From a virus, in the IMG/VR virus record IMGVR_UViG_3300010413_000124: DNA of 43,116 bases; one strand, 5' to 3'. Each line of letters opens with the position of its first letter. The first letter of the stretch is position 1. The position numbers and the translations under genes were made by a program. This document shows positions 891-973 of the stretch, piece by piece. The notes under the pieces are model-generated. The model did not search any database. It was not told where the DNA came from and saw nothing but the letters and a program-made list of their open reading frames with translations.

Positions 891-973
891 GCCCGAGTGG
901 CGGAATGGCAGACGCTAGGGATTTAAAATCCCTTGACCCTTGGGTCGTGTGGGTTCAACTCCCACCTCGGGTA
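891..973 (+). tRNA. tRNA-Leu (anticodon UAA)
   Basis: Cloverleaf by hand: acceptor GCCCGAG/CTCGGGT, D arm GCG..CGC, anticodon stem AGGGA/TCCCT with loop TTTAAAA (anticodon TAA), long variable arm, T arm GTGGG-TTCAACT-CCCAC, discriminator A. Confidence 0.8.

Follow-up and report, generated by a model that had tools for sequence, protein, structure and literature searches.

How the first half of a tRNA gene came to lie some 40 kb from the intact gene that it matches, and why a neighbouring gene ends inside that intact gene, is the question raised by this stretch of 43,116 nucleotides of viral DNA (hereafter the window, meaning the whole stretch). The initial annotation had taken the intact tRNA-Leu(UAA) gene for a recombination junction. 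The features that bear on the question are collected in Table 1. The window comes from the genome of a large uncultivated phage, and its genes include those for virion proteins, for a clamp loader, and for a fibre protein of collagen-like type. Relatives of its DUF2201/vWA protein, at 50–69% identity, occur on IMG/VR contigs of 178, 354, and 408 kb, and there are several hundred more in metagenomes. The phage is large, probably jumbo, and its host is probably a planctomycete. Matches in a database of isolated phages are at the level of tRNAs only for DNA, and protein identities there are at most 35% (at most 27% for DUF2201).

Table 1. Features of the tRNA-Leu locus and of the downstream island, with their positions in the window.
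Feature	Positions	Strand	Evidence or remark
HNH/endonuclease-VII-like gene, 3' end	1-186	+	PHROG 3322 endonuclease, E = 8e-12
Motif copy 1	155-186	+	32 nt, 81% vs copy 2; exact core 170-186 TGATAAGGGAGAGATGA
ORF215	236-883	+	Gene calls on L005-L009; 215 aa
tRNA-Leu(UAA), intact, type II	891-974	+	ARAGORN Leu(taa); Rfam tRNA 891-973, 55 bits
Sulfotransferase, Sulfotransfer_2, 221 aa	915-1580	-	Residues 203-221 (codons 918-974) antisense to the tRNA
MoxR-like ATPase, conserved left anchor	34432-35814	+	PHROG 1297; synteny in L001-L003, L065, L066, L071
tRNA-Met(CAU), first island element	35822-35897	+	ARAGORN; Rfam 70 bits; also in L065
Island accessory genes (methyltransferase, cysteine-dioxygenase-like, DUF4326, others)	36109-40949	+	Content varies between relatives
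GT2-like gene, last of the accessory genes	40284-40949	+	3' part of the island
Motif copy 2	40949-40980	+	Intergenic; RBS and start codon of ORF110; exact core 40964-40980 TGATAAGGGAGAGATGA
ORF110, horizontally exchanged cassette gene	40977-41309	+	A+C-rich, unlike its neighbours
3'-truncated tRNA-Leu(UAA) pseudogene, tRNA nt 1-36	41312-41347	+	Changes C2T, C25T; not recognised as a tRNA
Spacer, 58 nt, upstream of DUF2201	41348-41405	+	Potential pairing of spacer nt 1-18 with tRNA nt 18-33
DUF2201 metallopeptidase/vWA, conserved right anchor	41406-42737	+	Core gene, 58 nt past the breakpoint

The intact gene has the properties of a bacterial tRNA gene: it scores 55 bits against an Rfam threshold of 29, and its minimum free energy structure is a cloverleaf with a long variable arm. 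It is a normal, working phage gene. Its 5' half is duplicated, as the initial annotation had noticed: the 36 nt at 41312–41347 differ from 891–926 by two mismatches, with the copies about 40 kb apart, and a repeat finder reports the pair as 889–926 and 41310–41347 (38 nt, 95% identity). A local BLAST of positions 1–3000 against 39001–43116 recovers the tRNA repeat (E = 9e-12) and a motif upstream of it (E = 4e-5), with no other significant similarity. The homology stops abruptly after anticodon position 36. When the next 58 nt are aligned with the 3' half of the tRNA, 482 of 1,000 shuffled sequences score as well. The downstream copy obtains no call from ARAGORN and no Rfam tRNA match even at E ≤ 10, and it does not qualify as a bacterial tRNA gene, its 3' side being unrelated to tRNA; the 106-nt region that contains it folds no better than shuffled sequences (z = -0.55). 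A degenerate full-length tRNA at 41312–41395 was considered and ruled out, given the lack of a tRNA match and a 3' side with shuffled-level similarity. The 3' half of tRNA-Leu has no second copy, either in the window or among the loci that were fetched.

The 5' 34 nt of the tRNA were found in 29 metagenome contigs and 3 GTDB genomes. All three of these genomes are Planctomycetes, and every match is a full-length tRNA-Leu(UAA) gene of planctomycete type. The JGI metagenome and GTDB scans returned no further half copies, the JGI collection evidently being without the sample that holds contig L011. Among the tRNA-Leu genes retrieved by the 5'-half pattern, the closest lies on a metagenome contig (L044; 75 of 84 nt shared with the window tRNA). 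Two tRNA-Leu(UAA) genes from Planctomycetes MAGs share 73 of 84 nt, and that of a related phage, L051, only 61 of 84. By these comparisons, the tRNA-Leu of the window resembles the Planctomycetes type.

The junctions are real. Contigs 99–100% identical to the window occur in at least 10 samples and reproduce both of them, and they are identical in the JGI assembly and in several Logan assemblies. Because independent assemblies from several samples agree, the junctions are not assembly artefacts, which rules out a chimera. The circularity of the contig, on which the initial annotation had asked for a check, found no support: the window ends share only two short repeats. A circular or terminally redundant contig was likewise rejected, since near-identical contigs run 676 nt further to the left and 2.3 kb further to the right into unrelated DNA without closure.

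Both copies of the tRNA sequence lie downstream of the same motif. The initial annotation had given its length as 24 nt; the sharing was right and the length was not, because an alignment of that extent needs a 1-nt indel and the exact part is 17 nt long. This core reads as stop codons, a Shine–Dalgarno sequence, and ATG, and it has only two sites in the window when 3 mismatches are allowed, for an expectation of 0.11. Neither motif copy carries a promoter-like or terminator-like site. Between motif and tRNA sequence lie unrelated ORFs, as had been proposed: ORF215 and ORF110 have no BLASTP similarity to each other, and this also disposes of the idea that they are diverged homologues. ORF215 has no Pfam or PHROG match, its N-terminus is zinc-ribbon-like if translation starts at the TTG at 206, and it is separated from tRNA-Leu by 7 nt.

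The gene to the left of the first motif copy encodes an HNH endonuclease, and its TGA stop codon (184–186) forms the final 3 nt of that copy. The initial annotation had described a partial gene ending in the motif. The end is where it was said to be, but the gene is not partial; it looks so because the window edge cuts it. Contigs L008 and L061 carry it in full; it starts 537 nt upstream of the window and encodes 240 aa. A strong intrinsic terminator precedes it, and the gene stands free. Homology to phage endonucleases ends at residue 215 of 240; the conserved domain thus ends about 25 residues before the stop, and the tail reads into the motif. Every population contig that reaches far enough to the left carries the gene, and the window holds no HNH paralogue. 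The gene is therefore a free-standing endonuclease gene placed directly before ORF215 and tRNA-Leu, an arrangement expected of a homing endonuclease locus. IMG/VR searches with ORF215 and with the HNH protein gave no relatives, and no close relative of this left locus was retrieved.

On the other side of the intact tRNA, the convergent sulfotransferase gene ends in antisense tRNA sequence, as had been reported: its stop codon is at 915–917, and its final 19 codons (918–974), which encode VPEVGVEPTRPKGQGILNP, lie wholly inside the tRNA. The C-terminus of the family makes clear what was lost. The 19 aligned homologues stop at or shortly after FGYxF, while the window protein reads FGYR and then continues into the antisense tail, and for most homologues the alignment covers only 91% of the query and ends at the tRNA boundary. 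The joint, at 974/975, coincides with the last base of the tRNA, and it deprived the sulfotransferase of its final codon and its stop codon. The view that the native 3' end had been replaced is thus correct as to the loss, with the replaced part being about 2 codons rather than 20. The closest orthologue, in phage L051 (54% identity), retains an intact end, FGYEF. The overlap between tRNA and sulfotransferase is therefore not a conserved arrangement; it is absent from L051, the only related phage with an orthologous sulfotransferase. In that phage the gene sits in an array of 9 tRNA genes with an HNH gene, and what is conserved is the residence of the sulfotransferase among tRNA-type genes, not the overlap. 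An IMG/VR search with the sulfotransferase gave one distant match only (31%).

Phage L051 (Logan SRR22808042) has two other RNA genes of note in this neighbourhood. At 2542–2730, on the same strand and 3 nt past the sulfotransferase stop codon, lies a 189-nt mini tmRNA (Rfam RF00023, 53.5 bits over the full model span, no ARAGORN call). In the nine-tRNA array, the tRNA at 978–1049 (Rfam tRNA, 44.8 bits) is given the anticodon 'ccta' by ARAGORN, and it may be a CUA (amber) suppressor or have an 8-nt anticodon loop. The window itself contains a second, different sulfotransferase-family gene at 7524–8378 (Sulfotransfer_1/3-like) in addition to the Sulfotransfer_2 gene at 915–1580, as well as a cupin/mannose-6-P-isomerase-like gene and glycosyltransferase-like genes, and the phage appears to carry glycan-modifying accessory genes. 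The collagen-like protein is encoded at 14309–16066; it has 585 aa, a protease-like N-terminus, and long collagen-like GXY repeats that appear in the DNA as a 9-nt periodic repeat family (D1). Just downstream of this gene is a direct repeat of 233 nt (16099–16331 and 16458–16690; 80% identity, spacing 359 nt).

The truncated tRNA copy lies at the right end of a variable island whose anchors are conserved. In L002 the MoxR-like ATPase gene borders directly on DUF2201; in L001 and L003 a single gene intervenes. The island between the two anchors ranges from 28 nt to about 5.6 kb across the relatives (L001-L003, L065, L066, L070, and L071). Its content differs even between related phages: L065 (83–84% amino acid identity) carries tRNA-Met followed by small genes over about 5.5 kb, the island of L066 (76%) includes tRNA-Ile and tRNA-Ser besides other genes, and that of L071 (71%) consists of two small ORFs. 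On its right side, the window island is syntenic with that of L065 up to the GT2-like gene. The gap between this gene and DUF2201 is in L065 a spacer of 61 nt that shows no trace of the motif, of ORF110, or of tRNA sequence; in L070 (82%) it holds an unrelated 124-aa ORF; and in the window it holds the motif, ORF110, tRNA nt 1–36, and the 58-nt spacer, which has no homology to that of L065. The differing states of this gap, empty in L065 and occupied by another ORF in L070, mark the unit of about 400 nt at 40950–41347 as a lineage-specific gain. The initial annotation had predicted alternative cassettes between the motif and tRNA-Leu in related genomes; such alternatives exist, but at the downstream GT2/DUF2201 locus.

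By its composition and its homologues, ORF110 is foreign in origin. GC skew in ORF110 lies between -0.1 and -0.28, compared with +0.3 in the preceding gene, and AT skew is about +0.23 to +0.29. It shares about 80% nucleotide identity with an ORF in two unrelated contigs, L055 and L056, in a match that runs strictly from ATG to stop. Neither motif nor tRNA surrounds the homologue in these two contigs, and no donor with ORF110 beside an intact tRNA-Leu was found. The contigs with ORF110 homologues (L055-L057) have a coding strand that is extremely A+C-rich, with almost no runs of G or T, and represent a compositionally very unusual phage or element. An observation of another kind concerns the conserved neighbour of DUF2201 in L071, which is a 939-aa protein (11805–14624, minus strand) with matches to intein-splicing and LAGLIDADG domains where the window's relatives have about 493 aa; these matches indicate an intein insertion.

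Our preferred explanation, to which we give a probability of roughly 60%, treats the truncated copy as a pseudogene, a scar at the right-hand end of a gain of about 400 nt by mosaic recombination in a hyperplastic island. In this phage group, single genes would be gained, lost, and replaced at gene boundaries, with joints that reuse short sequences conserved between diverged genomes, namely regulatory motifs and tRNA genes. Since only these would be conserved enough to act as joints, the homology would begin exactly at tRNA position 1. A unit made of the RBS motif, ORF110, and tRNA nt 1–36 would have been gained between the GT2-like gene and DUF2201, with an illegitimate second joint inside the anticodon loop. 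Another, independent joint, where the intact tRNA ends, would have cost the convergent sulfotransferase its last codon and stop, leading to the 19-codon antisense readthrough. The reading as a recombination junction therefore holds, but its location moves: the breakpoints are at 41347/41348, in the anticodon loop of the truncated copy, and at 974/975. The duplication and truncation, the lack of the unit in close relatives, the foreign source of ORF110, and the loss of the sulfotransferase's native end are observed; the donor and the mechanism are inferred, the most economical mechanism being double-strand-break repair, or recombination during co-infection, by way of short homologies. Parsimony over only three close relatives points to gain as the direction of the event; a full tRNA-Leu that was ancestral at the 41312 site and later lost half of its length is a conceivable history as well.

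The joints behave like those in the hyperplastic regions of T4-type phages (PMC2839356). These phages have PeSL regulatory cassettes and hyperplastic regions (PMC2839356, PMC4122927), and the window shares with them non-essential single ORFs between conserved core genes, short repeated boundaries, and an ORF that differs among close relatives, the same anchors enclosing no ORF in L065, a 124-aa ORF in L070, and ORF110 in the window. It differs in its boundaries, which are an RBS/start motif and a tRNA 5' half known in two copies, and not a sigma-70 promoter with a terminator stem-loop in many copies; the motif occurs twice in 43 kb.

Two random joints do not fully account for the presence of the same motif before each copy, which leaves a small probability that the arrangement belongs to a cassette system. 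The RBS motif and the tRNA 5' half (or the anticodon-arm hairpin described below) would then be the ends of mobile single-gene cassettes that the HNH enzyme cuts or recognises; in a variant, a cleaved tRNA half would have been captured during break repair. We hold this to be improbable. If it were true, cassettes of the ORF215 and ORF110 type would be exchanged between such sites within and between large phage genomes.

An exchange driven by a homing endonuclease is a rival explanation, with the HNH enzyme cutting in or near tRNA-Leu or the motif and repair copying or truncating tRNA-Leu with its flanking cassette. The model for this is SegB, a GIY-YIG homing endonuclease of T4 and T6 that recognises the T-psi-C motif of tRNAs and cuts inside tRNA genes. 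In the tRNA regions of T-even phages it brings about co-conversion and rearrangements, among them joints at a tRNA 5' end by which an adjacent gene is truncated (PMC2330249; PMC13096335). The similarities are these: a free-standing endonuclease gene, complete and directly upstream of ORF215 and tRNA-Leu, stands beside phage tRNA genes; the tRNA region gains and loses genes between related phages; the joints have microhomology at tRNA ends; and the C-terminus of a neighbouring gene is truncated. That the conserved HNH domain ends well before the stop codon, with the tail running into the motif, and that L051 also has an HNH gene in its tRNA array, point the same way. So does the fact that three assemblies (the window, L005, and L064) all break off at one and the same base in the catalytic motif of the HNH gene (window 1–30), which suggests HNH paralogues; other sequences in those samples must share this 30-mer. 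The window enzyme is unlike SegB in being HNH/EndoVII-like and so of a different nuclease family, and the truncated tRNA is 40 kb from the endonuclease gene. Neither a pair of alleles with and without the endonuclease gene nor an HNH paralogue in the window was found, and we consider this explanation as a whole unlikely, though it has a good precedent in SegB. By analogy, an event initiated by an endonuclease is plausible in view of the complete HNH gene beside the first copy. Nuclease genes are reported to lie where blocks exchanged between phages begin or end (PMC10448857), and the nuclease gene of the window is similarly at the edge of a mosaic block.

Further breaks in the assembly graphs fall at the intact tRNA. 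In sample DRR851364, contigs L064 (1–918) and L006 (889–8302) overlap by exactly 30 nt (k-1) at the tRNA 5' end (889–918), and in sample DRR851349 a contig stops at 891; contig L010 starts at 891. The break at 889–918 implies that another sequence in those samples shares this 30-mer. The truncated copy cannot be that sequence, because it has 2 differences within the 30-mer. The second sequence may represent an alternative junction or another tRNA-Leu gene.

The half-tRNA may also have been co-opted as an RNA element, and this we regard as a slim prospect. A hairpin at 41329–41365 pairs tRNA nt 18–33 of the truncated copy with the 18 nt past the breakpoint (14 pairs, -14.1 kcal/mol, z = -3.1). 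It could act where the ORF110 message ends, or in the DUF2201 5' UTR, in processing, stability, or attenuation, or serve as a decoy for an anticodon-loop nuclease. The C25T change improves it by creating a U-A pair. At the DNA level the hairpin has three mismatches, each of them a transition that yields a G-U pair in RNA. Because the region was chosen after the fold had been seen, the z-score only hints at co-option or at fold-back repair. The hairpin lacks a U-tract and is thus not an intrinsic terminator, the element is absent from all relatives examined, and the whole spacer is not unusually stable and has no Rfam match. We take the hairpin as a hint that the remnant is perhaps not wholly neutral.

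tRNA genes are classic targets of integration, and the att sites in them carry the 3' part of the tRNA. The 36-nt block could on this account be the core of an attP, attL, or attR site left by integrase-mediated recombination into tRNA-Leu. Its near identity to the 5' half of planctomycete tRNA-Leu(UAA) agrees with such an origin, and the block resembles the tRNA fragments found at prophage and genomic-island integration sites in being a partial copy, in direct orientation, distant from the intact gene. It differs from them in that the duplicated part is the 5' half (tRNA nt 1–36), which is the wrong half. Moreover, no integrase or recombinase was found by Pfam and/or PHROGs among 40 window ORFs, including all neighbours of both copies, and the full-length HNH protein from L061, a scan that took in about two thirds of the small ORFs. 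The 40.4 kb between the copies consists of core phage genes, such as those for virion proteins and the clamp loader, which keep their synteny in relatives and form no discrete element, the site is absent from close relatives, and genome and metagenome scans revealed no prophage integrated at tRNA-Leu. The tRNA-targeted site-specific recombination that the initial annotation had put forward is not supported by these results or by the non-circular contig, and an attachment-site relic is very improbable.

Cyanobacterial tRNA-Leu(UAA) carries a group I intron in its anticodon. A break in the anticodon loop of a tRNA of this identity, the classic intron host, could accordingly mean that the downstream copy is the 5' exon of an interrupted or split tRNA-Leu(UAA). 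There is no group I intron (Intron_gpI) match anywhere in the window, and no 3' exon in the window, in the 2.3 kb further downstream, or in any fetched locus. The start of a conserved core gene lies 58 nt past the break, and in relatives no half-tRNA precedes this gene. With neither intron fold nor 3' exon, this explanation is effectively refuted.

The gain of a short unit by mosaic recombination is a known type of phage mosaicism in a well-resolved instance, and not a new mechanism or recombination system. Its value lies in being a case of accessory gene gain and loss in a large phage that is resolved to the base, with three close relatives showing three states of one gap, and with joints that fall on a tRNA gene and on a translation-start motif. 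It warns against taking tRNA fragments for att sites. It also presents a gene that gained a new C-terminal tail from antisense tRNA, and it documents a tRNA and accessory-gene island between the MoxR ATPase and DUF2201 in an uncultivated phage group that is probably associated with Planctomycetes.
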